Below are positions 39,711-61,394 of a DNA stretch of 64,000 nt, in pieces. The translations under genes and the position numbers were made by a program. Under the pieces are notes generated by a model. That model had not been told where the DNA came from, did not search any database, and saw only the letters and a list, made by a program, of their open reading frames with translations. This DNA is from an uncultured Acidimicrobiaceae bacterium (GTDB lineage Bacteria > Actinomycetota > Acidimicrobiia > Acidimicrobiales > Bog-793): the NCBI GenBank assembly GCA_963807575.1, contig CAWECD010000013.1, positions 21,703-85,702 on the forward strand, read 5' to 3'. The number at the start of each line of letters is the position of its first letter. Position 1 is the stretch's first letter.

Positions 39711-39811
39711 GCGAAGGACTTCAGCGGCCTGACCCGGACGCCGCCGGACGAGATACCTCACCTGACCTGCGAGAATGGACGAACTCGGACAGCGTTAGAC
39801 CAGCTTGATGG

Positions 39812-42644: not shown

Positions 42645-42914
42645 CTCAGCGTCCCTTGGTCGCGTCCGCCGGCCTGGGCGGGCCCGGCACGCGGGTCGAC
42701 CAGGCGTCGATCGTGGGGTCGGTCCGACCGAGTGCGCAACCCATCGCTTCAGTTGTCCAACATCGGTCGGGCCGCGGCAAGGGCGTCAGCTGCGCCATCA
42801 CGGTAGTGGTAGCCCCCCCGAACGGAGGTGACAGGCCTCGACAGACAGGACGAGAACGCAATTGGGGCGGGGACTCTCTTGCCTGCCTCCTGGTTCCTTG
42901 TCTCGCCTGTGGCT

Positions 42915-43145
42915 TCTCACAAAGACACGCCGCACACCTTCACGACGTCCGCGTCCGAGGGGGCCCGTTTCTTGCTGGTAACGGAACCGGCTGGTTTCGA
43001 CGGCTCCATGCGCTCCGGTGCTGAGGCGGCGAATGCCCTTACCTTGTCGCCAGCTCCTAGCCAGCCTCCAGACCCAGAACGATTGGGTACCCCTACCGGG
43101 AAATACGGAATCGAGATCCTTGGGCTGCCCGGCCTTTCGTCTTGA
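42915..43145 (+). pseudogene. C-terminal fragment of a cupin protein
   Basis: DTPHTF...ARFLLVTEPAGF...YGIEILG; first cupin motif missing. Confidence 0.6.
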
Positions 43146-43348
43146 AGGTCGCAGATCTTGTTGCCCGGGGCAGTCCGGGTATCGCTCCACATGGGGCGAA
43201 CTGACGCGGCAGGACGACACCTTCCACCCGGGTGACGATCATCCCAGCCGGGCGCGCAATCGCCGGGTAATGGTCTATCCGGCCACGCCTTCTCCGGCTC
43301 AGAGATTCACCCTCCGGTAGGTTTCGATCAGGCGAAGAAAAGTGCTTG

Positions 43349-43641
43349 GCGGGTTCGAAAGCACCTGCATGCTCTCCGCGTTGTCATAATCACAACGTTT
43401 TGCCAGTTCAACGGGCAGTTCCGCGTCCGTTCGTACAACCAGTAAGTGATCCAGGTTCGAACCCGACACGGGAGCGATTCCTCACCCATCAGCGAGCTGC
43501 ACAGACGTTCAACCCGCGATCCCTCACTTTCGATGCCAAGGCTTGCGCTGTATGACACCAGAACCTGTCTGATCGGGCGCGCCGGCAGCATGTCGACCAC
43601 GATTTTCTACGGGTCCATTCTGGGCCGCCCTTGATCGGCAC
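43349..43641 (+). repeat. tRNA-Ser-like junction repeat, copy 1
   Basis: GCGGGTTCGAAA..CTCTCCGC followed by ~260 bp clearly homologous to copies 2-4; longest match is to copy 3. Confidence 0.85.
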
Positions 43642-43822
43642 AGCTCGCCGCCTAAGCCGTCTCTGGCACGGCCGGTCTCGTCCTGTCATCTGCCTTGATG
43701 ACATTGAGGCTCAGAGCATCGACAGCCCGATCGGTGGTGCACGATGAGCGTCGACGGCTACCCAGTTAGCTTCGACTTCAAGCGCTCGGAGACCATGAGC
43801 CGCCCTCATCGAGAAACCAATG

Positions 43823-44437
43823 TCATCCCGAGATCGTCACCTCTTGACGGACGAAGGACGGGTCCTTGGCCGCCTTCAAAAGCCAGCCCGCAATATCGGC
43901 GCGGCTCACCTTGTGGGTGAGCGACAGCTTCTTGTCGTCGGGAACGATCCGGGACGTACCACTGGCCGGCTTGTTCGTCAGGACAGTCGCGTAGACGATC
44001 GTCCACTCGAGGTCGCTCGAGCGCAGGAGTCTCTCGCTTGCGGTCTTGTCGGCAATCGCCTTGCTCATCGTCAGGTTGGACATGAGCTTCGTCACGGGAC
44101 CAAACCGGTTCCGCTCGACGGCGAAGGACGACATGACAACGACCCGACGCATCCCCGCATGGTGGGCCCCGTCGATGATGGCGCGGACGGCGTCAGACAT
44201 GATCGACGGACCCCTCCCGCCGAGCGTGCTGATCACGACGTCGGCACCGGCCATGGCCTTGGCGAGGTCCGTAGCGCTCGTGGCATCTCCGTGGATTAGG
44301 TCCACACCGTCGCGTGTGAGCCCGACATTCACGTTCGTGCCGCGGACCAGAGCAATCACGCGGTCGCCAGCGGCTACCGCCTGCTCAACGACGTGCACGC
44401 CTGTTCCGCCGTTTGCTCCAAGAATCAGGATATTCAT
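43823..44437 (-). CDS. NAD(P)H-binding atypical SDR (BVR-B-like)
   Basis: GANGGTG, GDAT, SDLEWTIV and VSRADIA motifs. Confidence 0.87.
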   Translation of the reverse strand: MNILILGANGGTGVHVVEQAVAAGDRVIALVRGTNVNVGLTRDGVDLIHGDATSATDLAKAMAGADVVISTLGGRGPSIMSDAVRAIIDGAHHAGMRRVVVMSSFAVERNRFGPVTKLMSNLTMSKAIADKTASERLLRSSDLEWTIVYATVLTNKPASGTSRIVPDDKKLSLTHKVSRADIAGWLLKAAKDPSFVRQEVTISG

Positions 44438-44499
44438 GCCGCGCGTCCCGCCTCTGCGTCGCCGTCAAATAGGTCGCACCCGAACTGGCCTCGGTTAGC

Positions 44500-44682
44500 G
44501 TCGACTCCCGCTTCGTGGTCGAGGGCTCCGACCTGCGGGCCTGGCTCGAGCGGCCCGGTTTCTTCGAGCCGGCCGACCGCCGCGCCGTGCCTGTGCAGTA
44601 ACGGCTGCGCCGCGGGCACGTACCCGTTGCAGTCCGGGTCAATGTCATCGATCTCTTGCATCAGAACGATGTATGCAGACAT
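44500..44682 (-). pseudogene. DUF1330-like remnant
   Basis: MSAYIVLMQEIDD...YVPAAQPLLHRHG start, then loses resemblance. Confidence 0.45.
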
Positions 44683-44749
44683 CTCGTCCCTTCTCTCGTG
44701 TCGCGTCGCCGAAGAACGGGCGCGCGGGCAAGCTGCGGTCATGGCGGGC

Positions 44750-45622
44750 CTAGTTGTCCAGTCCAGCGACTTGCATGCGGAGAGCATCGAGCTCTTCGTC
44801 GGTCTGTTCGTGGACGGCCTTCATGAGTTGTTCGGCGTCCGGTCCGATCGGTACGCGGATCGGCGCAGGCTGTTGCTGGGCAACCTGGATGACGCGTGCC
44901 GCTGCGGTGGGGGCGTCGAGTCCACTGCTTTGCATGCTGTTGAACGTCGCGCTGAACGCTGCGAAGGCGTCGCCGTAGAGCAGGCGCTGCTCGGCCGTCA
45001 TGGATTCGGCTGTCTTCTGCAGCGCGCGGGCGGTGGCCGCAGGGCCGCCCGTGGCCATGTTGCCTGGCTCCACGATCACGAAGTGGACGCCGAACGGCTC
45101 GAGCTCGGCCCGGTAGACGTCGGCGAACGCTTCGAGCGCCGCTTTCGATGCGCTGGAAGGGCCGTTGAACGGAAGGGGGAATTTGCCGGTCGCCGAGCCG
45201 ATCTGGACGATCCGTCCTCGGGCCCTGCGCAGAGCCGGGAGAAAGACGTTGATGACCGCCAGGCTGCCGAACACGTTGACCTCGAACTCGTGGCGTATCG
45301 CCTGTAGGGGCAACACCTCGAGTGGGCCCGGGGTGAGGATGCCGGCGTTGCTGAACAGCACGTCGAGTCCGTGGTCGCCGAGTTCACCGGTGGTCTGCTC
45401 CGCCCACGAGTGCACCGCTTTGTCGTCGGTTACGTCGACGATCGTCAGTCGCACGGATCCGTCCGACGCCTGCTGGAGGTCTTCGATTTCCTGGGCGGAC
45501 AACGCGGTGCCGAACACCCGGTAGCCCTGTTCGGCGAGGCTGAGGGCGATCTGTCTTCCCAACCCTGCTCCCGCCCCAGTGATCGCGGCGGCAGGGGTGT
45601 TGTTGCTTCTCACATCGGTCAT
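44750..45622 (-). CDS. short-chain dehydrogenase/reductase
   Basis: TGAGAGLG, SNAG, VNVFG and VEPG motifs; catalytic YxxxK appears as SSASK. Confidence 0.87.
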   Translation of the reverse strand: MTDVRSNNTPAAAITGAGAGLGRQIALSLAEQGYRVFGTALSAQEIEDLQQASDGSVRLTIVDVTDDKAVHSWAEQTTGELGDHGLDVLFSNAGILTPGPLEVLPLQAIRHEFEVNVFGSLAVINVFLPALRRARGRIVQIGSATGKFPLPFNGPSSASKAALEAFADVYRAELEPFGVHFVIVEPGNMATGGPAATARALQKTAESMTAEQRLLYGDAFAAFSATFNSMQSSGLDAPTAAARVIQVAQQQPAPIRVPIGPDAEQLMKAVHEQTDEELDALRMQVAGLDN

Positions 45623-45635
45623 CTTCGACTCCTCT

Positions 45636-46569
45636 CTATGGGATGATGACGAGCTTGCGGGTGGCGGTGCCGGCCTCGAGCCGCCTCCATGCCGACGCAG
45701 CGTCGTCGAGCGGCAACCGTTCGACGTCCAGGCGCAGCGCGCCACTCTGGGCGTACGCAGCGAGCTGTTCGAAGGCGGCGGCGCGTTCCGCTCCTGAAAA
45801 GGCCCAGTTGGCGTGAGGCAGGGTGCTGACCAGCTTGTTGCGAAAGATGGGCGCTGCGAGCGTCGCCGCTGCGCCTGCGGCGTTGCCGACCTGGACGACC
45901 CGGGCGCGCGGACGAGCTACGTCGATCGCATGGGCGATGACCGGCCCCCAGACCAAGTCGAGGATCAGATCGACACCGTCGCCCGCCACCGCCCGCAGCC
46001 GTTCGCTGAGGGTGTCCAGTTCGGCCGTCGACACGGCGGCATCCGCGCCATGCTCGAGGACCACTTGGCGGTTTTCGTCGGCTCGGACCGCACCCACGAC
46101 CTGCGACGCGCCCAGCAGCCCGCGCGAGCTGGGTTGCCAGCTGCCCGACCTGTCCCTCGGCGCCCAAGATGAGCACCCGCTCCCCGGCCATGAGCCGGCC
46201 GGTGTTGGTCAGCGAGAGCCAGGCGGCGATACCGGATACCCCGAGCGCTGCCGCGAACGCTGGGTCGAGGTCGGCTGGCACCGTGGCGGTGTCCGCCCCC
46301 GCCAGCGGCACGCGCTCGGCGAGGGAGCCATACGGGAGCCTCGGGCCTCCGAAGTAGGACAGCGTGCCGTCCGCGAGGCGAGCGATGCCTTCAACGCCGG
46401 CGATGAACGGAGGAGAGGGCTGCCGGGCGGGCATCTGTCCGGCCGCAACGATCAAGTCGAACGGGTTCAACGCGGCGGCGACGACATCTGCCACGTCATC
46501 GCCCGTCGGATCGGCGAACTCCTCGACGATAGGGACGCCACCAAGGGCATCAACGACTGCTGCACGCAT
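45636..46569 (-). pseudogene. quinone oxidoreductase (MDR family), frameshifted near 46120
   Basis: ALNPFD, GVEG, LILGAEGQVG; removing one G at 46119-46121 restores ARLLGASQVVGAVR. Confidence 0.8.
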
Positions 46570-46761
46570 GGTGCACTCCTTTCTGTTTGATTGAGCCCAG
46601 CGCCAGAAGCGCCCGCCGAACACGTGGATCGGCGGCAATGCATCTTGATGGCCTGCTGGGCGGGAACTGGAGGCGACTGTCGCCTCCGATCTTTCTGATC
46701 ACCAGAAACAGCTCGGCCTCGGCCGGGCGGATGGTCTACCCGGCCGGGGTCGGCCGTCGGT

Positions 46762-47256
46762 TTACGATTCGCCTCTGCCTTCGACCATGCCGTTGGGGTT
46801 CTGGGCAGGAACAGGCTTTCCGAAGACTGCGGGCCCGAATGACGGAGCGACGTTGGACTTCGGATCGCCGACTAGTTGCAGTACGTCCCAATGCTCAGCA
46901 GCCTTGCCTTCATCGTCCATCCGGAAGATGTCGACAACTGCCATCCCGTGGTCGTCGGGATCGTCGTCGATGAAGTTGTAGAACACGCCGTGTGTGTACA
47001 CGTAGTCACCGGCGGCGATGGTGCGGTGGTACACGAGGCGTGCGTTCTTACGCTCCGTCGTGACCTGCGTGAAGTAGTTCATGATCCCCTGGGGACCGTC
47101 CTCGAGCAGGGGATTGTGCTGGATGTAATCCGGACGCGTGTACTTCTCGATCGCTTCCTTCGGCCGCTTCTGGTTGATCATCATCTCGTTCCAAGCGATG
47201 ACGTTCTCCAGGTTGCGCACGGCTCGGCTGTCGCGCGGGTCGACGCTCTTGATCAT
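46762..47256 (-). CDS. SnoaL/NTF2-like protein
   Basis: YIQHNP, DIFR and EHWDV motifs. Confidence 0.87.
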   Translation of the reverse strand: MIKSVDPRDSRAVRNLENVIAWNEMMINQKRPKEAIEKYTRPDYIQHNPLLEDGPQGIMNYFTQVTTERKNARLVYHRTIAAGDYVYTHGVFYNFIDDDPDDHGMAVVDIFRMDDEGKAAEHWDVLQLVGDPKSNVAPSFGPAVFGKPVPAQNPNGMVEGRGES

Positions 47257-47276
47257 GACTGCCTCCTTCTTGTGTC

Positions 47277-47316
47277 TGACTGACGATATCCTCATATATG
47301 AGTCTATCGTCTGTCA
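47277..47316. promoter_or_regulatory. putative TetR operator
   Basis: 40-bp near-perfect palindrome TGACTGACGATATCCTCATATATGAGTCTATCGTCTGTCA between divergent genes. Confidence 0.7.
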
Positions 47317-47385
47317 AGAGGGATTCGTCATAAGCGACGAGAACAGCTAAGATGTAGCTACAGACCCGAGCGGGAGGCGCGACAG

Positions 47386-48123
47386 ATGGCCGAGCTGACA
47401 ACCACAAGCAACCGGCTCGAACGGCGCAAGGCGCAAACGCGGGCGGCCCTCATCAGCGCCGCCCAGAGCTTCCTCGCCGCCGGGAGTCTCGATGTCCCGA
47501 TCCTTGAGATAACCCAGGCCGCTGACGTCGGGTTGGGTTCCTTCTACAACCACTTCGAAAGCAAGGAGGAGCTGTTCGAAGCGGCGGTGGAAGACGCTCT
47601 TGAGCTGCTCGGCAGTCTCCTCGACGACCTGACCGCAGACATCGACGACCCCGCTGTCGTCTTCACCCAAAGCTTCCGCCTCTTCGGTCGCCTCCACCGT
47701 CGCAACCCCGAGATGAGCAAAGTCTTAATCAACAACGGTCTCGCCACGGCCGGCTCGGCCCGGAGCCTCGCCTTCCGGGCGCTCCGCGACATCAAGGCGG
47801 GTGTTCGTACCGGGCGATTCACCGTCAGCGACCCTGAGCTGACGCTCATCATCATTGTGGGCGCTTCCCTCTCCCTCGGACAGTTCCTCCACGATCACCC
47901 TGAACGCGACGACGCCCAGGCCACCGATGAGGTCGCCGAGGACCTCCTCCGACTGCTCGGCATCCCCACCCGGCAGGCCCAGCGGATCATGGCCCTGCCC
48001 CTCCCGGACCTCGACGCCTGGCGTGGTCGAGACGGCCAGGCAGGCCTTCCCGACTCGGCCTCGCCACGCTCCGCAGGTCTGCCAGCGGAAGCGAACTTGC
48101 CACGGTCAGCCAAGTCTGAGTGA
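47386..48123 (+). CDS. TetR/AcrR-family regulator
   Basis: ITQAADVGLGSFYNHFESKEEL HTH. Confidence 0.92.
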   Translation: MAELTTTSNRLERRKAQTRAALISAAQSFLAAGSLDVPILEITQAADVGLGSFYNHFESKEELFEAAVEDALELLGSLLDDLTADIDDPAVVFTQSFRLFGRLHRRNPEMSKVLINNGLATAGSARSLAFRALRDIKAGVRTGRFTVSDPELTLIIIVGASLSLGQFLHDHPERDDAQATDEVAEDLLRLLGIPTRQAQRIMALPLPDLDAWRGRDGQAGLPDSASPRSAGLPAEANLPRSAKSE

Positions 48124-48527
48124 TCGGCCGACGCTTCCGCATGGCTCGGTGCCAGTTCCTCGTGACCACCGCCCGGTGGCGGCACCATTGCCCGGCGTGT
48201 TGAGGATGGCAGGCGTCGAGGAAGCCGCCGGAGGAGCCGGCCGCAGCTGAAGCGATCAGCGAAGGCCGAGCGCCTCGACGGACGAGCGAGAATCGACTGC
48301 GCCTCGGGGGTCACGTGCCTTGGCTGATCCTCTCCGGTGCCGGGACCAACTGGCCGCGGACCCCTTGAATCACGCCGTTACACAGAACTTCTGACGGACC
48401 CGTCGCTGGGCTCCCTCGAAGTGGCTCCCTGCTGGCCGAGATGTGCGGCGTCGGGCTCATGCAGCGCTTTCGAATCCTGCCGACCTCGAACAGGGGTCAG
48501 TCGAGGAAAGTGGGCTCGAACCACGAT

Positions 48528-48810
48528 GCGCAGCTGGGCTCACCCAAGCAAATCGTTGATCAAATGTCTGATCTGGTCCCAGGCGTCCTGGTTCAAACGT
48601 TGTCCCACCCTCTCCGCGTTGTCGTAATCACAACGTTCTGCCAGTTCAGCGGGTCGACTCCGCGTCCCTTCGTACAACCAGTGAGTGATTCAGGTTCGAA
48701 CCCGATACGGGAGCGATTCCAGGCCCATCGGCGACGGCTGCACAAGCGCGCCCGACCCCAGCGTTCCACCGTTGTGTTCCGCGCCAAAAGCTCGCGCTGC
48801 GTGTCCCAGT
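48528..48810 (+). repeat. tRNA-Ser-like junction repeat, copy 2
   Basis: GGTTCAAACGTTGTCCCACCCTCTCCGC at 48590-48617 plus shared flanks. Confidence 0.88.
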
Positions 48811-48873
48811 GCCGTCTGATTGAGAATCCACCGAGACGGGGCTGTTCGCCATCTCTCACGAACGCCGAACGGA

Positions 48874-49476
48874 TCAGTCTGGACGCGCTTGACTGCTCCG
48901 AGGGTGGATGGTCTCACCCCGGGCCAGCGTGGCGACGAATAGTTCGATCCGCCGACGGCGGGTCTCCGTCCGCTTGGCAGTGGTCACTCGATAAAGGACT
49001 GCATATCGATTACTGGCGTCCAGCTTCTCGAACATGGCCAATGCAGGAGCGTTGGCAGCGAGTGCCGCGGCGAGGCCGGATGGCACCGTCATCGCTCGTT
49101 GGCCCTCGTAGGCACGGTCCCAGCTGCCATCCTCCTTGGCGCGCTCCACCGCGGCCATTCCTCCAGGCAACATGCGGCCTTCACTAACAAGCCGATCGGC
49201 GAGAGCGACATTGCGCTTGGACCAACTGCTGCCCGGCCGGCGCGGGGTGAACCTCCTGCGGAACGTCCGCTCGTCGCCCTTGGCGAGCTGGCCGTCGACC
49301 CAGCCGTAGCGGATCGCTTCCTCGAGGGCCTCGTCGTAGGTGAGGCGGGTTGGCTCGACCGTGCCCTTCTTGGCGAGGACGAGCCAGACGCCTTCGCTCT
49401 CGTATTCGTGCTCGGTCAGCCACTGGGACCAGGTCGCCGCGTCGGCGACAGTGAGAACCGGAACCTCCTTGGACAC
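48874..49476 (-). CDS. YdeI/OmpD-associated family protein
   Basis: EALEEAIRYGWVDG, FTPRRPGSSWSKRN and AKRTETRRRRI motifs. Confidence 0.88.
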   Translation of the reverse strand: MSKEVPVLTVADAATWSQWLTEHEYESEGVWLVLAKKGTVEPTRLTYDEALEEAIRYGWVDGQLAKGDERTFRRRFTPRRPGSSWSKRNVALADRLVSEGRMLPGGMAAVERAKEDGSWDRAYEGQRAMTVPSGLAAALAANAPALAMFEKLDASNRYAVLYRVTTAKRTETRRRRIELFVATLARGETIHPRSSQARPD

Positions 49477-49779
49477 GGTGCCCAGTCTCGCGCCGAGGTG
49501 GTGGCCGATCTTCGCCCCAGATCAGAGCGCGGCTCGTCGATCAGGGCGGGCAGCGCGCAAGACGCTGACATCTCGTCCTGAGCGCGTAACTGACACCCGG
49601 GGTGCGTTGGCCAAGGACATGCCTTCGGCGAGCGTGCCCATACTCGGCGATCACGAACGAGCGCGACCGCCGCTGACGCAGGGGCAACACAGATCGGACA
49701 GTCGGCACCTCTCATTCTTCACTCCTGCGGCTACGTCAAGCGAGCGTCGTGCGAAGATGAAGACGTGGGCACCATCCGA

Positions 49780-50004
49780 ATGAGGCTCGCAAACTTGCCG
49801 CTGGTGGGACGGTTCGCTGTCGTCGGTGCAGGTAGTGCGGGTGCGGCCGGAGCGGTCGCCGGACTGACCATCGGGTTGATCGTGTATGCACCGACCGCGC
49901 CGTTTGCCCTAGTGGAGCTTGCCTTGCCTTCGGCTGTCGTCGGTGGGCTCGCTGGACTTGCGGCCGGAGCCGGCGTCGCAGTCGTCCGCAAAATGCGTCG
50001 TTAG
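49780..50004 (+). CDS. small membrane protein
   Basis: Two hydrophobic segments flanking YAPTAPFA. Confidence 0.45.
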   Translation: MRLANLPLVGRFAVVGAGSAGAAGAVAGLTIGLIVYAPTAPFALVELALPSAVVGGLAGLAAGAGVAVVRKMRR

Positions 50005-50119
50005 CAATCTGTTCTGAGACGCACGGGGTAGCGCGACCCGGATTGACCGAAGTCTGAGCGTCATACTCGGCGTTTCGGGCGCCTCTTAGCCCCGTCATGT
50101 GCGGCGCTCTGTGTTCCCT

Positions 50120-50769
50120 CGCAGAGCTCGTGGTACTAGCTGTCGTCGTGGCGGTCGCTGCCGGAGCTTTCAGCCTTCTGGTCTCGTGGTATTACCAGCC
50201 CTACTTCGCGACGGCTAATCCGTCCCTTTCGCTCTCTGAGGCGTCCCAGTTCAGCGTCTCCCTGTCCGACCTACGTGGGGTCGCGTTCGCCGCTTGGACG
50301 CTGGCAGCCTTCGCGATCGGAGCGCTGGCCGGCATGCTCATCCGCCGGGTCGTTCCTGCGATCGTCGCCACCCTGGTTGCCTACACCGGCCTCGCGCTCT
50401 TGGCCGGGAATTATCTGCGCGAGCACTACTTGGCGCCGCTGCTCACGACCAATCTGAACGTGCCCAGTCTCGCGTTCGTCCTGAGCCAGCGGTGGACCAA
50501 GAGCGGCAGATTCGTGTTCTAGAGCTGGAGGGACGCTCCCCCCCAACCTCATCCAGGCATGCGTCAGCGCTCCGTCGGGGTTTGGCAACAAGCCGTCGCT
50601 GACCGGCCTCTACGAGTGCTTCGTCCGTAACGGCTATGCGCAATTGACCCGCTACCAGCCGGTCAGCCGGTTCTGGCGATTCCAGTGGATCGAGGGCGGC
50701 CGGCTCCTCGCGCTATCGGTGCTGCTCATTGCCGTGACCGTTTGGCTGGTCCGGCGGCGGGCGACCTGA
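50120..50769 (+). pseudogene. ABC transporter permease remnant
   Basis: GMLIRRVVPAI...YQPVSRFWRFQWIE...RRRAT*; 5' end missing and internal TAG at 50520-50522. Confidence 0.75.
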
Positions 50770-50810
50770 TCGTCCCAATCGCTCGCATCAGAACCCTGGT
50801 TGTTGGTACA

Positions 50811-51656
50811 TCACAGTTCGCGACGGTCAAAGCTGACGATCCCCGCACCGAGCACCGCAAGGAACCAGACACCGACCCAGACCAAGTACGTCCACGTTGG
50901 CGGTGCCTGTGCGAAGAACGGATTGCCGCTGTCGGGCGAATTTGTGAGGCGCTGCACAACAAAGGACTGCGGCTCCAGGTAGTAGATCGCGCCACGCCAA
51001 AGGCCATCGGTCGGAAGGATGTAGCGCGCGACGTCGCCGATGGTCGTGAGCGAGGAGATCTTGAACGCGGTCCCGAGCGATCCGACGACCCCTGCCAACC
51101 ATGCTGCCCCGAACAGCGCGATCGCGACGACCCCGGTCGCGATGGCCGACAGCCGCGTGCTGAGCAGCAACGTGAGCGTGAGGAGGATGGCACCCTCGGC
51201 GAAGAGGTAAAGGGCGACGAGCACGGGGCTAGGCGGAACGAACCCGGCGACCCAGTCGACGACGCCGACCTCGAGACCGGAGACCACTGCCGAGTAGGCG
51301 AGGATGACGGTCGCGAGGCCCAACCATTTACCGAGGAGGACCTCGCTCCGTCTTACCGGTCTCGCGAGTATTGAGAGAAGCACGCCTGATTCAGCCTCTG
51401 CCGAGATGGCAGGCGACGCCATCGCCGAAGCGCTCAGGGCGACGACGAAGCTGAACATGAACATGAACAAGATGAGCGCCTGGGGGATCGCTACGCCGAC
51501 CTCTCCCGAGGTGATGCTGGCGTTGTGGCTGAGACGATCGAATCCCCACGCGCTGAGCGCGACGAGCCCGATGGTGATAGCCACACACGCCGCGACGAGC
51601 CGCCGTCTGACCGCCTCACGAAGGGTGAGCAAGGCGATCGTGACAACCGGGTTCAT
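50811..51656 (-). CDS. ABC-2 type transporter permease
   Basis: TLREAVRRR, EAESG...RPVRRSEVLLGKW and FDRREL motifs. Confidence 0.88.
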   Translation of the reverse strand: MNPVVTIALLTLREAVRRRLVAACVAITIGLVALSAWGFDRLSHNASITSGEVGVAIPQALILFMFMFSFVVALSASAMASPAISAEAESGVLLSILARPVRRSEVLLGKWLGLATVILAYSAVVSGLEVGVVDWVAGFVPPSPVLVALYLFAEGAILLTLTLLLSTRLSAIATGVVAIALFGAAWLAGVVGSLGTAFKISSLTTIGDVARYILPTDGLWRGAIYYLEPQSFVVQRLTNSPDSGNPFFAQAPPTWTYLVWVGVWFLAVLGAGIVSFDRREL

Positions 51657-52645
51657 GACTTGCCCAGCAGCTCGAGGAAGCGCTCTTCGAGGGTCTGCTG
51701 ATCGGGGATGACAGCCCCGATTCGGCCACCGGCGCTCACGACCGCGGCCACGAGTGCAGGGATCTCATCAGCTTGAATCCGGGCCACGGTCAGCCACTCG
51801 CCATCTCGCGCGACGTCGCCGAACTTGGCGATCACCGCGAGGTCGTTATCGTTCAAGCCCGCCACCTTGAGCCGCACGCTCGAGGAGCGACCGAGGAGGT
51901 CCACGAGCGCGCCAGTAGCGATCGAACGTCCCCGATCAATCACGCAGACCCGATCGCAGACGTGCTCAGCTTCCTCGAGGAGGTGCGTGTTCAGAAAGAC
52001 CGTGGCCCCCCGTTCCCGGACCCGGCGGATGATCCCGCGTACGTCGTGGCGACCAACTGGGTCGAGGGCGCTCGTGGGCTCGTCCAAGATGACGAGATCC
52101 GGATCTCCGACGAGCGCGACGGCGAGTCCGAGGCGCTGCTGCATGCCTTTGGAGAAAGTGCCGACCTTGTCGCCGCGGCGCTCGGCGAGGCCAACGGTCT
52201 CGAGGACCTCGTCGATTGCGCTCATAGCTCGGCCGCGTGGGAGCTGGATCAAGCGACAGTGCAGCATCAGCACCTCAGAGGCTGTCAGCCAGCTCTGGAA
52301 CCGGAAGAGCTCCGGGAGGTAGCCGATCCGCCGCCTCGTCTCCCGATCACCCGCCGGAGCGCCGAGCACCATCGCCTCGCCGCCGGAGGGCCGAACGAGA
52401 CCGAGCAGGAGCTTGACGGCCGTGGTCTTGCCTGCCCCGTTCGGACCGAGGAACCCGAAGACCTCACCGCGGCCGACCGTCATCGACAGGCCGCCCAGCG
52501 CCGTCGTGGTGCGAAACTCCTTGCGAAGCTCGATCGTGAGCACGGCCGGCGAGACGCGCGGATCCCCACGGGACGTGTCCGCCACGCAGTCGTTGGCTAG
52601 CGACGCGTCCTCGCTGATTGGCTCAGCCGATCTGTTGAGCGACAC
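51653..52645 (-). CDS. ABC transporter ATP-binding protein
   Basis: GPNGAGKT, FSKGMQQR and ILDEPT motifs. Confidence 0.92.
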   Translation of the reverse strand: MSLNRSAEPISEDASLANDCVADTSRGDPRVSPAVLTIELRKEFRTTTALGGLSMTVGRGEVFGFLGPNGAGKTTAVKLLLGLVRPSGGEAMVLGAPAGDRETRRRIGYLPELFRFQSWLTASEVLMLHCRLIQLPRGRAMSAIDEVLETVGLAERRGDKVGTFSKGMQQRLGLAVALVGDPDLVILDEPTSALDPVGRHDVRGIIRRVRERGATVFLNTHLLEEAEHVCDRVCVIDRGRSIATGALVDLLGRSSSVRLKVAGLNDNDLAVIAKFGDVARDGEWLTVARIQADEIPALVAAVVSAGGRIGAVIPDQQTLEERFLELLGKS

Positions 52646-53729
52646 TCAGAACGTCCTCCTTGTCGAGCAGGCCGGCCACGGCATGGACAACGTCGTTGTG
52701 GTCCTCCCATATCGCTCCAGAGGCCGCATTGGAATTATCGGACAGCACCACTGCCGGTGACCCGTCGATCTCGGTCGACTCCGAGCTAGCTCCAGGTGGT
52801 GTCGGGATCGGCAAGGTCGTCTGCAGGTTCCCGAGCAGGCGGATCTCCGCGGCGACGTCGGCCGGCACGCCCGGCTGGGACAGCAAGAAGTTCTCAATCT
52901 GATTCGTCGTCGCGCCAGTCGAGGTCGCAATCGGTTGCGCCACGGTGAGGATCGCGAGCGGTCCGATGTCATCGATCGTCGTCGCGCCGCTGTAGGACAC
53001 TGCGACCGCCGGACCGAGGCTCACCACGAACGAACTGCCCGAGAGGCCAGATCCGGCATTCGCGCCGAAGTCGATCGTCGCAGTGACCTTCGGCATGACC
53101 GCGTAGTGATCGATCCCACTCACGCCGTTCGGAAGCGTGGTCGGAAGCGTCACCGAGAGCCCGGTCGCCGCCTCGGCGTCAGCGAGGGACGCGACCTGCC
53201 CGGCTCCCCCCGACGACGTCCAGCTCAGCATGCCGAAAGGCAGCGTCTCTGATCCCGACGGACTCCTGAATCCGTCGAACGAGGTCGTCGTGTTGAGCCC
53301 CATCAACTGGGTGAGCTCTTGCACGTCGGCCTGGCTCACAGGCACCCTGGCGACCTGGGTCGGCGCGAAGACGGTGGTGAGCGTCGCAGCGGCAGCGACA
53401 CCGACGATCACGACGCCGACCGCGGCAAGCGAGGCGCCGGTGCTGAGCGAGACGCCCATGAATCGCCAGCTGCGACGCGGTCCGACGCGCCATGTCGTCC
53501 GGCGCGAAGGCCTCTCGATGAGCGACGCTCGAGAGCGGGCAAGCCCCGCATCGGTGTCGGAGGGCACCCACACGTCGAAAAATCGCTCGACCGTCGCGGC
53601 GTCCTCGGTGATCCGCTGCGATCGCGCCCGACAACGCGCGCATCCCTCGACGTGTCGAGCGTCCCGGTCGGTGACGGCGAACGGCTCGTCGATGAGCCGA
53701 CGAAGCGTGCCGTCAGGAACGTGTCGCAT
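52623..53729 (-). CDS. membrane-anchored zinc-binding anti-sigma factor
   Basis: HVEGCARC motif, TM helix, extracellular domain; AGGAGG RBS. Confidence 0.78.
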   Translation of the reverse strand: MRHVPDGTLRRLIDEPFAVTDRDARHVEGCARCRARSQRITEDAATVERFFDVWVPSDTDAGLARSRASLIERPSRRTTWRVGPRRSWRFMGVSLSTGASLAAVGVVIVGVAAAATLTTVFAPTQVARVPVSQADVQELTQLMGLNTTTSFDGFRSPSGSETLPFGMLSWTSSGGAGQVASLADAEAATGLSVTLPTTLPNGVSGIDHYAVMPKVTATIDFGANAGSGLSGSSFVVSLGPAVAVSYSGATTIDDIGPLAILTVAQPIATSTGATTNQIENFLLSQPGVPADVAAEIRLLGNLQTTLPIPTPPGASSESTEIDGSPAVVLSDNSNAASGAIWEDHNDVVHAVAGLLDKEDVLSVAQQIG

Positions 53730-54258
53730 GATCAACCTCCTTACGAAATCTGGCCTCGGCGCGCCGCAGCATCGTCCCGACCTGTCCGATATTTACTTCC
53801 ATCGCCCCGGCGATCTCGGCGTAGCTGAGCCCGCTGTGGCGAAGCACGAGAACCGTCGCGGCGTGTTCCGGCATACGGGCGAGCGCGGTTCGTACTTCAC
53901 GACCTTCTTCGTTCGCGATGACGAGCTCCTCCGGGCCAATCGCCGGCGTTGCCTGCGGGACGCGCTCTTGGCGCACCTGACGGCGACGGCGGCCGCGGAC
54001 GGCGTTCAGGCTCGCATGGGACGTCGCAACCTTGACCCAGGCCCGCGCGTGGTCGGATCCGAGGGGCTCTGGGAATCGTTGCTGGGCTGCGATCAGAACG
54101 TCCTGGGCGACGTCCTCTGCGAGGTGGGGGTCGCGAACGATGCCGTAGGAGATGCGCACTAGCAGCGGATACTCCGTCCGGAAGAACTCCTCGAAGCCGG
54201 TCGTTGCTGGCAGAGCTCCACCCCTCGCTTTAGGCGGCAAGGTCAATACGGTCCCCAT
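53713..54258 (-). CDS. ECF RNA polymerase sigma factor
   Basis: AEDVAQD; LRHSGLSYAEIA...VGTMLRRA. Confidence 0.9.
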   Translation of the reverse strand: MGTVLTLPPKARGGALPATTGFEEFFRTEYPLLVRISYGIVRDPHLAEDVAQDVLIAAQQRFPEPLGSDHARAWVKVATSHASLNAVRGRRRRQVRQERVPQATPAIGPEELVIANEEGREVRTALARMPEHAATVLVLRHSGLSYAEIAGAMEVNIGQVGTMLRRAEARFRKEVDHATRS

Positions 54259-54938
54259 CTATTCGTAAGCACCGCAGGCCGTGATTTTGTGACAGGGAAT
54301 CTGAGCGAGCAAACCCGTAGGTGCCATCCCGGCGCAAGCGCGCTTTCGCGCTGAACTGTGATCACTGATAAGCGACGTTGAGACTGTCGTCCCAAGGTCA
54401 CTCACTGCGGGCGGCTTCGGGTCCTTTAATCCGCTCGATGAGCGGGAACGACGAGACAATCAGGCCCAGCCACGCAGCAATCGATCCGCGGCGGAGACCA
54501 CCGACCCTCCTTAACGTTCACGCAAATCGGCGGCTGATCCACCAGATGCAGAAGCCGCTAAAGGCGACGGCGACTCCGGCAAAGACAGTCTGATTGAGTA
54601 ACGACAGGCGTTGAGGCTCAGCCGTAACGTCAAGGGGTCTGGACGGGAGGCTCTCGAACTGTCTGCCGATCACGATTGGTCACCTTCGCGAAACCGGTTC
54701 GGCGTTTTCACTCGTTCCGTGCGACCTCGGGTCCCGTGATCCGGTTGAGGAGCGGGAAAGTCGAGGCCATGATCGCGAGTGACGCCGCTAGTCCGCCGAG
54801 GACGGTCGCCCAGTACGCGCGGCAATAGAGTCGGCAGGCGGTCGTTCGTGCCGAGCTGCCCAACTGGCTTTCTCCTGCGCCTAGTACTCGAGCGACACCG
54901 AACTCGGCGATCTGGGTGGACTAGTCGACCGACCCTAG

Positions 54939-55338
54939 AAGCCATCCACCTCCAGGGTCCCGAACTCACAATTCCGGGAATCGCGCAGCTACGCTCATCA
55001 AAGGAGGTTCTTGATCAGCCGTCTCACCTGATCCCAGGCGTCCTCGTTCAAACGTTGTCCCACCCTCTCCGCGTTGTCGTAATCACAACGTTCTCCCTTT
55101 TCAGCGGAGGGCTTCCGCGTCCACTCGCTCAAGCAGTGAGTAATTCAGGTTCGAACCCGGCACGGGCACGATCCCGTACTCATCGACGAAGGCTGCACGG
55201 ACGCTTGGTTCGGCGGTTCCACTGCCGTTCCAGGCCAAAAGCTTGCGCTGTGTGACGCCAGAGCCTCGATCGGGCGCGCCGGCAGCAGCTCGACCACGAT
55301 GTTCTGTGGGTCCATTCTGGATCGTCCTTGATCGGCAC
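54939..55338 (+). repeat. tRNA-Ser-like junction repeat, copy 3 (longest)
   Basis: GTTCAAACGTTGTCCCACCCTCTCCGC at 55046-55072; left flank shared with copy 4, right flank with copy 1. Confidence 0.88.
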
Positions 55339-55581
55339 TTCGGCCCGCGGCGGGAACGCGGTAGTGGGACAACTCCGACGAGCGGTAGGAGGCAGCGCCG
55401 GGTGGCGCCGTCTCCGGCTGGGTTGACACCGAGGCGGATCCGCCATCTCGGCGCGAACGATGGGCGACAACTTGAGTGCCCTCGCCGGAGTGTCCGCAAA
55501 GGCGAGCCTCGAGGTTGAGCCGTGACAGCCAATTGCGCCGGCTCTGTCCGCTGGTCTGGTTGGCCGCCGAGTCCGTGTGCG

Positions 55582-56475
55582 CTAAGCAGCAGGCGTCGCG
55601 ATATGGAATGCCGTACGGCATCGTTCGGCCAGCTCACGAGCGGCCACGCTTCCGCTCCGCCGCCAGAGAACGGCCAGCAAGGCGGGGATCGCCACGTCGC
55701 GGATGGGTAGGACGCGAAGCAGAGCTTCGTGCGCGGCGGCCAGCGAACTGCTGAGGATGCCGACGCCGAGTCCTCGGGCGGCGAGGTCGGCGATGGAGTC
55801 GGCTGAGGCAGCTTGGATCACGATCGTCGGTCGGAGACTGCGGGCGGCGCAAGCCTGGTCGAGCACGGCGCGCAGCCCCGTACCGGTTGGCATGCACACG
55901 ATCGGGTGTCTCGCCACCTGCGCGAGAGTGGTGGTCTTGCGACAGGCCAGCTCGTGGCCAGAGCGAACGACGGCGACGAGTCCCTCGCTGACGATGACGA
56001 GCGAGGCAAGGTCCTCGGGCGCACGGTGCGCGCAGCCGACGAGTGCGAGATCGACGCCACCGCGGCGCAGCTCGTCGATCAGTTGGTCGGAGCCGCCTTC
56101 GCGCACGGTGATCTCCACGGCGGGGTGTGCCTCGTGAAAGCTCGCGAGCGCGTCGAAGAACGGCGTAATCGCACAACCGACCACCATTCCCACCGTCAAG
56201 CGGCCGCGCAACAGCTGGCTCGTCTCGCCCACGGCCTCGCCGAACGCCTGCGCAGCGGCCAGCGCGGCGCGTGCGTGCTCGAGGGCAGCTTCGCCGGAGG
56301 CCGTGAGCCTGGCGGTGCGGGCCGAGCGGTCGAACAGTTCCGTGCCGAGCTCGCGTTCAAGCTGTTTGATCTGGGCGCTGACCCCGGACTGGCTGATGTG
56401 GACCCGCGCGGCGGCTCGGGTGAAGTTGGCTTCCTCGGCCACCGCGACGAAGTACTCAAGCTGGCGGAGATCCAT
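55582..56475 (-). CDS. LysR-family regulator
   Basis: MDLRQLEYFVAVAEEANFTRAA...SQSGVSAQIKQLE HTH. Confidence 0.93.
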   Translation of the reverse strand: MDLRQLEYFVAVAEEANFTRAAARVHISQSGVSAQIKQLERELGTELFDRSARTARLTASGEAALEHARAALAAAQAFGEAVGETSQLLRGRLTVGMVVGCAITPFFDALASFHEAHPAVEITVREGGSDQLIDELRRGGVDLALVGCAHRAPEDLASLVIVSEGLVAVVRSGHELACRKTTTLAQVARHPIVCMPTGTGLRAVLDQACAARSLRPTIVIQAASADSIADLAARGLGVGILSSSLAAAHEALLRVLPIRDVAIPALLAVLWRRSGSVAARELAERCRTAFHIATPAA

Positions 56476-56578
56476 GAGCATTGATTCTAGCATTGATCTG
56501 AAGTATCTGTTTGACTCATGATAAGTACAGGCGCAAGATTGACGCTTCCACCAAGAAACGTGAGAAAGGAAGAACGCT

Positions 56579-56968
56579 ATGTGTGACAAGGCCGCTCGCG
56601 AGAAGGCAACAACGCCAGAAGACCTGACGCGACTGTTCGTCGAGCGTTCCAACGCCGGCGATGCAGATGGGGTCGCCGAGCTCTACGAACCCGACGCCGT
56701 GATGGCGTACCCGCCCGGGCAGCTCACCATCGGGCGCGACGCCATCCGCGACCTGTGGAAGAGCGTGCTCGCCCACCGCCCACATTTCACGCCCGAACCA
56801 CCCCTTCCGACCCTGATCTGCGGCGACATCGCCCTCACGTCGACGCCACCGAGCGACGGCGCCGGCGCTCGCGCGCAGGTCGTCCGTCACCAAGCCGACG
56901 GCAGCTGGCTGCGGGTGCTGGACCAGCCCGAGTTCATCAGCCGGCCGATTTCAGACAGACCGGCCTGA
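56579..56968 (+). CDS. NTF2/SnoaL-like (YybH/DUF4440) protein
   Basis: NAGDADGVAELYEPDA...RHQADGSW...DQP. Confidence 0.82.
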   Translation: MCDKAAREKATTPEDLTRLFVERSNAGDADGVAELYEPDAVMAYPPGQLTIGRDAIRDLWKSVLAHRPHFTPEPPLPTLICGDIALTSTPPSDGAGARAQVVRHQADGSWLRVLDQPEFISRPISDRPA

Positions 56969-57010
56969 CAGCACCGATCCAAGCGCAAGCCCCGAACAGG
57001 AGACGATTCC

Positions 57011-57523
57011 ATGCCCACGACCACCGAGCCGACCACGACACAAGCAGGCTATGTCCCGGTGCCGGTCCGCTTCGACTTCGACGCCTTGGCGCTCGCTACC
57101 TCCAAGGCCGTCGCCGGCCTCCACCAGGCGGCGATCGAGGATCTCACAACTGCCAAGGTCGACCCCCAACTGATCGAACTCGTCCGCCTACGCGCGTCGC
57201 AGATCAACGGGTGCGCTTACTGCGTCGACACCCATGCCAACGACGCTCGGGGAGCGGGCGTCAGCCCGCAGCGCGTCGATGCCGTCGCAATCTGGCCGGA
57301 TGCACCCCTCTTTACCGAAGCCGAACGCGCCGCCCTCGCGCTGACCGACAGCGTCACCCGCCTATCAGAGACACACGCACCCGACTCCGTCGTTGCCGAC
57401 GCCCTGAGGGTGCTCGGCCAACAGCAGACGGTTGCGATCCTCGGGCTGATCGTCTCCATCAACGCCTGGAACGAAATTGGTGTGACCAGCCGCTGTTGGC
57501 CGATCTCGCCACGCGAGCCTTGA
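57011..57523 (+). CDS. AhpD/carboxymuconolactone decarboxylase family protein
   Basis: ELVRLRASQINGCAYCVDTH and INAWN motifs. Confidence 0.9.
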   Translation: MPTTTEPTTTQAGYVPVPVRFDFDALALATSKAVAGLHQAAIEDLTTAKVDPQLIELVRLRASQINGCAYCVDTHANDARGAGVSPQRVDAVAIWPDAPLFTEAERAALALTDSVTRLSETHAPDSVVADALRVLGQQQTVAILGLIVSINAWNEIGVTSRCWPISPREP

Positions 57524-57660
57524 CACCATTGGGATGGTGTAGTTGGCCGGGACGGCCGTCCGCTCGGCTGCCGCCTACCGTGGAGTTGCTTCCAATCCCC
57601 GTCTCGCCCACAACGCCGGCTGGGAGTGCACGACGATCCAGGCCGGACGAAGATGTCGAC

Positions 57661-57975
57661 ATGCCCCATGTCCTGATCATCGATCCCCTGAGCGAAGTGG
57701 CCATTCAACCTGGCGCCGTGGTCTCAAAGGTCGTGCACCGTCGCGACGGGATGAACGTGACTGTCTTTGGCTTCGACGCCGGCGAGGAGCTGACCGAGCA
57801 CCAGGCGGCCCGCGCTGCCGTAGTTCAGGTACTGTCCGGACGGCTTCGCTTGACCGTTGACGGTGAGGAACTCGAGCTGACTCCAGGGTCGTGGCTGCAC
57901 ATGACGTCCGGCACGCCCCACTCCCTGGTTGCCACTGAGCCGACCATCATGCTGTTGACCCTCACCGGTTCCTGA
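57661..57975 (+). CDS. cupin domain protein
   Basis: FGFDAGEELTEH...PHSLVA...MLLT. Confidence 0.85.
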   Translation: MPHVLIIDPLSEVAIQPGAVVSKVVHRRDGMNVTVFGFDAGEELTEHQAARAAVVQVLSGRLRLTVDGEELELTPGSWLHMTSGTPHSLVATEPTIMLLTLTGS

Positions 57976-58199
57976 CCGCCTTGGAGCGGCGCGGAGGCCG
58001 CATATCCCCGAACATCGCCTGTGCACGAGACCTGTCCCAGCCCCAGATCGCCGGTTCGCGGACGCACAGAATGACAGCCCGAGCCGTTAAGCGGCGCGTA
58101 ATCGGTGTTCAGTCCGGACTCGAAGACCGATCAGCGTCGCGAAAGGGAGCGTAAATCAAGCCCAGGGGTCCCGAACGGGAACGGGTTTACGAGCCCCGC

Positions 58200-58515
58200 A
58201 AGCCATCTACCTCACCGCCCGCTCTCACAGTTCCGGGAATCAATCAGCTACGGTCATCAAGGAGATTCTTGATCAGCTGCCTGACCTGATCCCAGGCGTC
58301 CTGGTTCAAACGTTGTCCCACCCTCTCCGCTGTTGTCATAGACACAACGTTCTGGCTGTTCAGCGGGCAGTTTCCGCGTCCGTTCGTACAACCAGTGAGT
58401 GATTCAGGTTTGAACGACACGGGCACGATTCCAGCCATCAGCGATGGCTGCAAGAGCGCTCGGCCCAGCGGTTCCACGATTGTGTTCCCGCCAAAAGCTC
58501 GCGCCGCGAAGCCAG
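58200..58515 (+). repeat. tRNA-Ser-like junction repeat, copy 4
   Basis: TGACCTG..AGG.GTCC.TGGTTCAAA-CGTTG-TCCCACCCTCTCCGCT; 58316-58331 identical to 39853-39868. Confidence 0.88.
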
Positions 58516-58658
58516 GAATGTCGATCTGGACGAGGCGACCTTCGCCCCGGAGCGTCGTCTTGGCCGTCGTTATGCGCTCGCCCCTGGTGTAGAAACCGTA
58601 CGCCGGGCTCGAGGCGGATCGGCGCTCACGTTGCCCGATCGACACCGGCACATATGCG

Positions 58659-59438
58659 CTACCGTTGGTCGGCACCGACCTCATTGCCGGTAAGCTTGAA
58701 TGACGGGGACCCGACTGCTGACTGATTGAACCCCTTCACGATCAACCAAAGGGCCAGGACCACCTCCTGCACGCCTATCGGAAGATTGAAGATCACTTGG
58801 GTCGTGGAGATGTATCCGGTGACGCGGCACAACACCAGTAGGGCCGCCACGAGGCCCAAGATGACCCCAGCGGCACCCCAAGCCGACGACCATCGAGGAA
58901 TTAGCTGCGCTTGATAGAACACTGCGTAGTACATGAGAGCGCCCACGTGAAAGGCGAACACCGCGGCGCGGCTCGCTCGATCACGAAGCGCCAGTAACAA
59001 ACCACCAGAGCCTTGGAAATACGACCGACGTGGCGCTCCGGCCGTCACAATCTCCTGACTCAAGGTCAAGAACAGGAGCGCGTCGATCGCGACAACTACA
59101 TAGAAGACGCCCTCAATGACTCGGAAGGCCACCGAACCAAGAGCGAGTACTTCGCCGTGTCTCCTCAAAACTCGGTACAGCGAAATGGCAATCCCAGCGC
59201 TCGCAAAAGCGGCCACCAACTGAAAGAACGCTCCCACAATCACGCGGTCTTGGTTCGCAAACGCCTTGAGAAGATAAGCGGAGCTGTTGAGGATCGGATT
59301 CAAGAGGCCGGTACTCACCAAGCTGGCAACGGTCGCGGTGATGAATAGGATTCCCGCAAGCCTTGCCCTCCATCTGTCTGGTTCCACCACCACCGCCCAC
59401 TGTAGGACCGCTCTTGGCGGACTCGGCTCCTGTGCCAT
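58659..59438 (-). CDS. DUF4386 family membrane protein
   Basis: ARLAGILFI, FRVIEG, LIPRW and EVVLALWLIVKGF motifs; start uncertain. Confidence 0.75.
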   Translation of the reverse strand: MAQEPSPPRAVLQWAVVVEPDRWRARLAGILFITATVASLVSTGLLNPILNSSAYLLKAFANQDRVIVGAFFQLVAAFASAGIAISLYRVLRRHGEVLALGSVAFRVIEGVFYVVVAIDALLFLTLSQEIVTAGAPRRSYFQGSGGLLLALRDRASRAAVFAFHVGALMYYAVFYQAQLIPRWSSAWGAAGVILGLVAALLVLCRVTGYISTTQVIFNLPIGVQEVVLALWLIVKGFNQSAVGSPSFKLTGNEVGADQR

Positions 59439-59578
59439 TTATCGTCAGGCACGGTGAGACGTCGCCCGGCAGGGCCGGAGGTTCGAGCGATAGGCCGAAA
59501 GGGTGTCGTATAGCACATACTGCCGGATCCAGTGCCCCCTTGGACCTGTCGTCGTCGGCGAATCGGCTAACTCTCGCG

Positions 59579-61148: not shown

Positions 61149-61394
61149 CTCTCGCGAACGTCCCGCATCGCCGGCTGATCCGTTTGTCGACTGTGCCCCC
61201 GGTCCCGCGGGGGATGCGATCCCTACCCGTGCGGTCGCGGGCGCCTGAGTAAGTCGCGTTGGCATTCGGCGCGACGTTCTGCTCGCGCTCGCCCCAACCA
61301 GGACTGCTTCGCTAGCCCGTGTCCGATGGGCGAGCGGTCGATGTGGTGTCGCGTCCGCGAATGGCTCTTATCCGTTGGCCAACGTCGATAGTCG

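Follow-up and report, generated by a model that had tools for sequence, protein, structure and literature searches.

The stretch of DNA considered here (the window, 64,000 nt) corresponds to positions 21703-85702 of contig C13 in a metagenome-assembled genome (MAG) of an Acidimicrobiaceae bacterium (G000:C13:21703-85702; 3.66 Mb in 24 contigs), so that a window coordinate equals the contig coordinate minus 21702. Downstream of the tRNA-Ser(gga) gene (26882..26967, plus strand, ARAGORN), which anchors the island, it carries a row of gene cassettes separated by a non-coding repeat of 360-445 bp. It is this repeat, each copy of which we call a joint, that we studied. The core genes dnaX and ybaB-recR lie upstream of the tRNA gene (Pfam on upstream open reading frames, ORFs), and the tRNA-Ser(gga) locus is conserved in all 21 genomes of the genus. 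The relatives used for comparison are MAGs throughout.

Four joints lie in the window, all on the plus strand. Joint 1 (43301..43657) consists of a left arm of a type that we call A', the core CTCTCCGC (43372-43379) and a right arm, B, with a C extension. Joint 2 (48481..48898) has a left arm of type A, the core with its 15-mer at 48603-48617 and a B arm; joint 3 (54908..55352) has an A arm, the core at 55058-55072 and a B arm with a C extension; and in joint 4 (58167..58590) one extra T stands between the core (58316-58330) and the B arm. A fifth, half-length joint made of A arm and core only follows 5 kb past the window end (G000:C13:90904-91122). Between them lie cassette M1 (43658..48480), with genes for an NAD(P)H-binding protein, a short-chain dehydrogenase/reductase (SDR), a SnoaL-like protein and a TetR regulator; the mosaic cassette M2 (48899..54907), with an OmdA/YdeI-like protein, a small membrane protein and an ABC-2 transporter block (about 50785-54580); cassette M3 (55353..58166), with a LysR regulator on the minus strand and a cupin-domain protein on the plus strand; and cassette M4 (58591..64000 and on past the window to joint 5), with DUF4386, an IS66 insertion, zinc-ADH and MarR.

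The initial annotation of this DNA had described four degenerate repeats on the plus strand, and a repeat finder as well as a four-way alignment (66% mean column identity) found them at those places, although their bounds had been drawn slightly too narrowly when compared with a profile built from the four copies. The alignment also bore out that copies 2-4 carry GGTTCAAA-CGTTG-TCCCACCCTCTCCGC, that copy 4 retains TGACCTG..AGGCGTCC, and that copy 1 has a different lead-in ending in CTCTCCGC, where its homology to the other copies begins. Copy 1 does not terminate the array but is a joint whose left arm is of the second type, A', which is also T-loop-like and recurs in other genomes (G010, G015, G017 and G007). 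The array is longer than had been described, as it runs on to joint 5 and is preceded by two further integrase-free units bounded by attachment (att) sites.

The joint is tripartite, with an A arm, a core and a B arm. The A arm is about 170 nt long and its last ~60 nt align with the 3′ half of tRNA-Ser, which agrees with the initial claim that the left half of the joint derives from that gene. Its tRNA-like parts are TGACCTG, a CCAGG..CCTGG hairpin and GGTTCAAA, with CGTTG inserted in the former T-loop. The core, CCCACCCTCTCCGC, corresponds to the T-stem and acceptor strand of tRNA-Ser, and a real tRNA-Ser(gct) in an Aquihabitans MAG ends exactly in this way. The 15-mer TCCCACCCTCTCCGC occurs at 39853, 48603, 55058 and 58316, that is, four times against 0.01 expected, a number that none of 100 shuffles reached. 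The B arm (200-260 nt) begins with a 17-bp palindrome, GTTGTC-N5-CACAAC, followed by GTTC.., and holds the very conserved GGTTCGAACCCGACACGGG; the core-to-B gap is 0-2 nt, but 27-28 nt in three joints. Besides the CGTTG insertion and the palindrome, the motif GGTTCGAACC forms part of the A-core-B joint.

With its insertion the T-loop reads AACGTTGT, which is the inverted partner (8-9 nt) of ACAACGTT in B. Both inverted octamers are present in 11 of the 16 A-core|B joints, 26-28 nt apart. In one relative the palindrome has become GTCGTC..CACGAC, a double change that preserves it. Additionally, the 22-mer AACGTTGTCCCACCCTCTCCGC, which spans insertion and core, is identical in MAGs of other genera with diverged flanks. 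The shared 5-nt insertion reported initially is present, but it is not mere decay: it creates the inverted partner of the B palindrome, and the 22-mer is identical across genera.

A blastn search of the 3.66-Mb assembly returned no copy of the repeat beyond the five on C13. All copies share one contig and one strand, a distribution that differs from the scatter expected of a miniature inverted-repeat transposable element. A family search recovered the repeat from 18 of the 20 other genus genomes and from none of four other genera of the family, while two of 16 genomes of other families gave only marginal matches of 25-28 nt. On every contig with two or more matches (15/15) all matches had the same strand. 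The repeat also occurs in public records, whose titles assign them to Acidimicrobiales or Acidimicrobiaceae MAGs of peat, fen and soil.

The B arm also occurs without an A arm at its left, directly after intact tRNA genes. It follows tRNA-Ser(gga) in G006 and seven metagenome loci; tRNA-Ser(gct) in G007, G012 and one metagenome locus; tRNA-Ser(tga) in contig C8 of G000, G012, G007 and one metagenome locus; and tRNA-Ser(cga) in contig C13 of G000, G016 (L016) and G008. In total, B adjoins an intact tRNA-Ser in nine of 28 metagenome loci and twice in G000. The B arm of joint 1 differs very little from the one behind tRNA-Ser(gga) in G006 (L010). The pattern of the B-start palindrome has ten matches in G000, seven of which immediately follow a tRNA or tRNA-like end. 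A set of 47 distinct B starts comprised 16 of the A-core|B kind, 16 of the tRNA|B kind and 15 others; the A-core is in turn joined to right arms other than B (c5, L008, L011, L012, L018, L020). In the 16 tRNA|B joints, as well as in the joints of A-core with other arms, homology stops exactly at ...CCGC / GTTGTC. The tRNA in tRNA|B joints retains its own acceptor sequence, which restricts any crossover to the final ~6 shared bases or the boundary itself. Since B still joins real tRNA ends, any crossover must lie 3′ of the 5-nt insertion. The earlier proposal that the module became its own site is therefore half right: B has not given up joining real tRNA ends.

The two arms of the joint assort independently. 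Across 21 joints the identities of A and B were uncorrelated (r=0.12, Mantel p=0.05), and discordant pairs combined A arms that were 97-99% identical with B arms at 71-81%, or B arms at 93% with A arms at 48%. Joint 2 and its orthologous joint in G006 have A arms that are 99% identical, but B arms at only 81%; for joint 3 and a joint in G016 the values are 97% and 71%. Orthologous joints are 93-99% identical between species.

Across species the cassettes are 91-95% identical, as compared with 75-84% for the adjacent dnaX in the same genomes. M1 has counterparts of 95% identity in G006, immediately downstream of the tRNA, and at two loci of G016; M3 is 91% identical in G018. The ABC block of M2 is 91-94% identical in five genomes, in which its left neighbours differ and its arms are truncated, and in relatives it has its own truncated B or A-core at its left. 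A segment of M2 was also found in the tRNA-Ser(gct) array of G007. The identity above that of dnaX, together with this piece at another tRNA gene, indicates that cassettes moved between species and between tRNA-Ser loci, and on this comparison of sequences we conclude that they crossed species boundaries recently. From one species to another the modules differ in content and order, and the breaks fall at the core or close to it. The arrays also contain deletions, truncated arms and insertion sequence (IS) elements, and cassettes of relatives often carry a GntR regulator with an ABC transporter.

The modules were said to be free of integrases, and this holds for the whole 189-kb contig, on which neither Phage_integrase (PF00589) nor Resolvase (PF00239) gave a match. 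Pfam likewise found no integrase among the cassette ORFs, and a tblastn search with the 32 integrase domains of G000 found none inside the arrays at the loci examined. Elsewhere in the 3.66 Mb of G000 there are 44 Phage_integrase and six Resolvase matches. When ORFs were clustered, no transposase recurred in the cassettes; the clusters consisted only of regulators, ABC transporters and similar genes. A Y1 transposase is absent from G000, whose two full-length genes of the IS110 family are located elsewhere. As to the recombinase genes of G000, many of the 44 Phage_integrase matches are convergent with a tRNA gene, and tyrosine-recombinase genes stand in a row at two places, six at G000:C7:16173-22237 and three at C16:225-2661; these rows are likely recombinase trios.

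Several candidate enzymes were considered and rejected. In ten relatives covered by family searches, integrases near the repeats occurred only as part of a tRNA-Arg element or 5′ of the tRNA. Near the A-core of G004, G006 and G003 there is an integrase of 394 aa (402 aa from stop to stop), which is part of an element that occupies the neighbouring tRNA-Arg(acg); in G012 and G007, the integrases beside tRNA-Ser(tga) are located 5′ of that tRNA; and the candidate on G008:C4 is only a 64-aa fragment, 5.5 kb away. A simple inner-dif pattern for Xer matched one unrelated place and nothing in the joints. With respect to serine integrases, the octamer motif was near none of the serine recombinase genes, and the contig has no serine recombinase. 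Two pattern scans of viral contigs for a viral origin gave no matches.

The one integrase type that shares the tRNA target is found behind another end, B2. A 328-aa tyrosine integrase, convergent to tRNA-Ser(gga), lies behind the B2 end in G001, G005, G009 and G017 (96-100% identity), and B2 is the end of this integrase-bearing element. A-core|B2 joints occur in G018 and G020, yet the B2-type element shares only its target with the cassettes. As a universal helper its integrase was rejected, as it does not co-occur with arrays. The B2 integrase genes (L074:644-1630, L078:655-1641, L072:1956-2942) are 96-100% identical although the dnaX of their hosts is about 78-81% identical to that of G000, which suggests an actively spreading element. 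The direct repeat GACCACCAAAC occurs twice at the B2-type element end.

Whether the repeat could be a small gene or pseudogene, or encode a structured RNA, was considered for both strands; we hold this to be extremely unlikely. A minus-strand frame, AERVGQRLNQDAWDQVRQLIKNLL, is open to a conserved stop in all 24 genus-type copies with a pN/pS of 0.45, the lowest of six frames (0.72-1.51 in the others), and copy 4 has an ORF of 146 aa. Yet the variability over the 24 copies has no 3-base periodicity (permutation p 0.30-0.96), and reading frames differ among copies through indels of 1-2 nt at the core. Pfam returned nothing except one match at E=0.043, and neither it nor the protein searches related the repeat to an intact protein gene. 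An exhaustive phmmer search of 1.84 billion representative proteins gave 13 matches of 40-127 aa, whose common part is the C-terminal 24 residues behind unrelated N-termini; a word-based search, which is weak evidence, found no longer protein with the motif. The coding reading was rejected on these grounds: it has no periodicity, no Pfam match, no consistent N-terminus and no longer proteins. As for RNA, Rfam (E up to 1) had no match in the repeats and a chance match only on the 57-nt tRNA copy described below, the consensus fold (-5.3 kcal/mol) shows no convincing covariation, and alifold on both strands found nothing beyond the inverted octamers of A and B. In the window, a 24-codon minus-strand frame lies in the tRNA-derived A arm at 48518-48617, 54973-55072 and 58231-58330, with no consistent start or protein relative. 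The low pN/pS of this minus-strand A-arm frame stands out as an oddity.

Taken together, these results allow us to propose that the repeats are probably, if by no means certainly, tandem attP-like joints of non-autonomous integrative cassettes that are moved by a site-specific recombinase acting in trans. Such tandem integration fits the attP-like size of the joint, its tRNA-derived half, the sharp, recurrent break at tRNA ends, the hybrid joints and the free assortment of arms. Each repeat would be the joint between two neighbouring, tandemly integrated cassettes, a cassette being ordered as B arm, cargo and A arm, so that A-core-B forms the attachment site. This site would have the size of an attP, with a short core between conserved non-coding arms of about 170 nt and 200-260 nt, which may hold binding sites for the recombinase and accessory proteins. 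The entry point of a cassette would be either the very 3′ end of a tRNA-Ser gene or the core of a joint already in place, which has the same sequence; the tRNA would remain intact, B would come to lie beside it, and older units would be pushed distally. Repeated entry would yield an array in one orientation, which would later decay by deletion and IS insertion. The recombinase would be supplied in trans; that it is a tyrosine integrase performing site-specific recombination, that the arms are protein-binding sites, and that the cassettes are still mobile are what we infer from the sequences. The initial annotation had likewise spoken of junctions of non-autonomous cassettes, and this is partly supported by the position of the joints between recombinase-free modules, their tRNA-derived left half and the independence of their arms.

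A number of observations weigh against this proposal. No cognate recombinase was found in the searches described above, and no autonomous element with A and B arms was seen at any locus examined. The B2-type integrase element (at least 96% identity) is present in four of 21 genus genomes and absent from G000 and most array genomes. In the assembled contigs of runs X2, X4, X5 and X9 there was no circle and no empty-site joint, and contigs break at the core. The B palindrome begins at varying distances from the tRNA end (0, 1, 2 or 27-28 nt), one locus (L060) has the pentamer GTTGC duplicated before that palindrome, and a B-like start also follows tRNA-Ala(tgc); a precise crossover in the core accounts for these features less well. 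Finally, the discordance between joint 3 and the joint in G016 switches about 40 nt inside B and not at the core, which is the outcome that homologous recombination would give. With regard to the contigs, joints between repeat copies in those of run X4 have extra letters between their sides and fit repeat copies of other strains, and a loose contig end at 58331 is the same as the sequence flanking joint 5, which has a near-identical A arm at this point. In no relative does the DNA past joint 5 adjoin tRNA-Ser(gga) (in G011 it is 14 kb from the tRNA), so no empty site can be defined. The last 12-15 nt of the tRNA-Ser acceptor end are repeated two to three times in tandem at L079 (G019:C78:3757), L023 and L066; like the duplication in L060, these repeats may have been left behind by recurrent recombination at the end of the tRNA.

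The switch inside B is one reason to consider an additive island built by RecA-dependent homologous recombination, with no site-specific enzyme and with the ~350-bp joints only as homology anchors at which DNA from relatives is gained, exchanged or lost. The high identity of orthologous joints between species gives stretches long enough for this process, no array contains an integrase, and a general model of cassette gain at tRNA genes, as far as the available parts of its source set it out, has been published (PMC4119200). We nevertheless regard it as unlikely. Homology ends exactly at ...CCGC / GTTGTC in the tRNA|B and A-core|other joints, and the four different tRNA-Ser genes beside which B is found have no more than their last few bases in common with the core. 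Copies within a genome are mostly 77-84% alike (87% over the shared 135-nt B start), which makes them a poor substrate for homologous recombination, and the conservation of 350 nt of non-coding DNA would be left unexplained. Another possibility is a fossil, in which elements that were formerly autonomous and carried an integrase have decayed, leaving the joints as att scars that are now inactive and vertically inherited. Deletions, truncated arms and IS insertions in the arrays point this way, and so does the fact that G000 has no integrase of the type found at tRNA-Ser(gga) in relatives; degenerated elements and scattered partial tRNAs are described, in the portion of the source at hand, for tycheposon islands (10.1101/2020.12.28.424599). 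This would still leave cassettes more alike than the neighbouring dnaX, the same cassette at different ranks and at different tRNA-Ser loci, and conserved non-coding arms with a 22-mer identical across genera, and we judge it slightly less likely still.

A transposon-like element that targets tRNA 3′ ends by an enzyme other than an integrase, with B as a fixed terminus and the tRNA-like A as captured flank, seems very unlikely to us. It would account for the left edge of B, which is constant at GTTGTC but variably spaced from the tRNA end (0-2 or 27-28 nt), for the occurrence of B after Ser, Ala and one other tRNA-like end, for the locus with the duplicated pentamer, and for the inverted repeat of 8-9 nt that brackets the joint. 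Against it stand the lack of any transposase that recurs in cassettes or of a Y1 transposase in G000, the location of the two full-length IS110-family genes elsewhere, and the confinement of the repeat, which has no scattered copies. Additionally, a partial tRNA copy at the distal end is a hallmark of integrase-type att sites.

Beyond tandem integration in trans as such, a bolder version may be formulated, which we hold to be rather doubtful, if less so than the alternatives above. Here the joints would belong to a genus-wide, integron-like system of gene capture, in which multigene cassettes carry only a bipartite att site of ~350 bp (the B and A arms), any tRNA-Ser may serve as entry site, and a sister family would use tRNA-Ala. 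The T-loop pentanucleotide would be a gained recognition element that pairs with the B palindrome, and a recombinase encoded elsewhere in the genome, possibly not a canonical element-borne one, would shuffle cassettes among four tRNA-Ser loci and between species. If a trans-acting enzyme does serve many cassettes, a widespread lineage of soil and peat, without cultured members, would possess a second means of capturing genes, similar to that of integrons. Integrase-free units with paired conserved ends also allow a direct test of how cargo-only island DNA moves.

The two units between the tRNA gene and the array proper are separated by a direct, plus-strand copy of the 3′ half of tRNA-Ser(gga), from the anticodon stem to the end (57 nt, 39812..39868). 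Two bases are swapped in its acceptor strand, which reads CCTCTCC and matches the repeat core. The proximal unit, E0 (26968..39811), is att-bounded and integrase-free according to Pfam and recombinase-family searches. On the left it begins with a diverged version of the B2 end, which in relatives carries the tyrosine integrase. Its cargo comprises an esterase, TetR, IS21 (IstA/IstB), GGDEF-EAL, a cupin, a luciferase-like protein, TetR and an APH(6)-like kinase. The IS21 pair (30956-33264) consists of an IstA-like protein with rve and Mu-transposase C domains plus IstB, and the kinase gene (38000-38944) is of the APH(6)/hydroxyurea-kinase family. The second unit, E' (39869..43300, or 39869-43371 as an att-bounded unit), is also integrase-free, ends in the A' arm and contains a gene for an FtsX-like permease (40128-42644, minus strand). 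It starts with an end of yet another type, B3 (TC..TTCACGCTC). Elsewhere this end stands after a real tRNA in L076 and after an A-core in L018; it follows the 57-nt copy, joint 5 and, in G018, a real tRNA.

In M4 the IS66-family element (59571-61148, transposase ORF 59624-61084) is a recent insertion. It is absent in contigs of runs X2, X4 and X5, where position 59570 is joined to 61149 with eight shared bases, and an identical copy lies at G000:C9:70990-72561. As regards the assembly itself, contigs C7 and C8 of G000 hold two syntenic regions of ~86% identity, in which long stretches are about 84-90% identical (for example, C8:180000-200000 and C7:55043-74972), with duplicated tRNA sets, so the MAG may mix two related genomes. 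C8 has a B start after tRNA-Ser(tga) and C7 has none, which makes the pair a natural comparison. At G000:C7:57331-68794, tRNA-Ala(tgc) is followed by 11.3 kb without an integrase match, a partial tRNA-Ala copy and a B-like palindrome; on C8 the same tRNA-Ala(tgc) is directly followed by a B-like start and then by sequence similar to the IS110-family element of C9.

Growth by accretion is known for tRNA-linked islands, most of whose content usually has no visible ends or known means of movement. The array described here resembles a variant of this growth mode, and by analogy it comes close to the accretion of cis-mobilizable elements (CIMEs) and to additive or tycheposon-type islands. In the available parts of the review PMC5704250, CIMEs are att-bounded units that lack genes for integration and transfer and that accumulate by inserting into an att site already present, and are described as decay products of a related neighbouring integrative and conjugative or integrative and mobilizable element (ICE or IME). 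On that description our array is CIME-like in that its direct att repeats contain the target gene's 3′ end, that it lacks an integrase and that it has a single orientation at a tRNA 3′ end. Unlike a CIME so described, it had no autonomous relative with the same arms at any locus examined, each cassette keeps about 350 nt of conserved arms, and the family is genus-wide and uses four tRNA-Ser genes.

Tycheposons of Prochlorococcus, in the portion of the source available, are defined by their own integrase (910 of 937 have a tyrosine recombinase) and often carry replication genes, and their islands contain non-element material without defined ends (10.1101/2020.12.28.424599). Going by that account, the likeness to such islands lies in serial integration by a tRNA gene, partial tRNA copies between units, older material at the distal side, and degenerated elements along with cargo; unlike tycheposons, the cassettes are integrase-free with conserved paired ends. 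For the additive flexible islands of Alteromonas, a conserved tRNA is reported as the target for cassettes that vary between strains and species (PMC4119200, in the parts available). Both systems thus have a tRNA target and cassettes of variable number and kind. The passages at hand describe the Alteromonas islands at the level of gene content and define no conserved joint sequence; the Acidimicrobiales array has one.

Integron cassettes are likewise recombinase-free, have their own recombination site each and lie in one orientation at a fixed entry point, according to the portion of PMC4119200 that treats them. So described, integron arrays share with ours the co-oriented, recombinase-free cassettes with a site of their own at a fixed entry point. 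Ours has no adjacent integrase, with dnaX and recR upstream instead; its joints measure 360-445 bp, and its cassettes are multigene units of 2.8-6 kb that have genes on either strand and include regulators of their own. In an integron, the first cassette adjoins attI and the integrase gene, cassettes mostly consist of one gene without a promoter, and each is followed by attC, a short site that is an imperfect palindrome and forms a hairpin. Recombinase-free units whose enzyme is encoded elsewhere also occur in composite SCC islands of staphylococci (ccr-less pseudo-SCC units) and in Xer-dependent IMEX/pdif modules. These are alike in having such units between repeated sites, but their enzymes and sites differ. 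A literature search of limited extent found no description of the repeat or of such arrays in Acidimicrobiia. What sets the array apart from its closest counterparts is that its integrase-free units have conserved paired ends, that no autonomous relative accompanies them at the loci examined, and that they are found at several tRNA-Ser genes.

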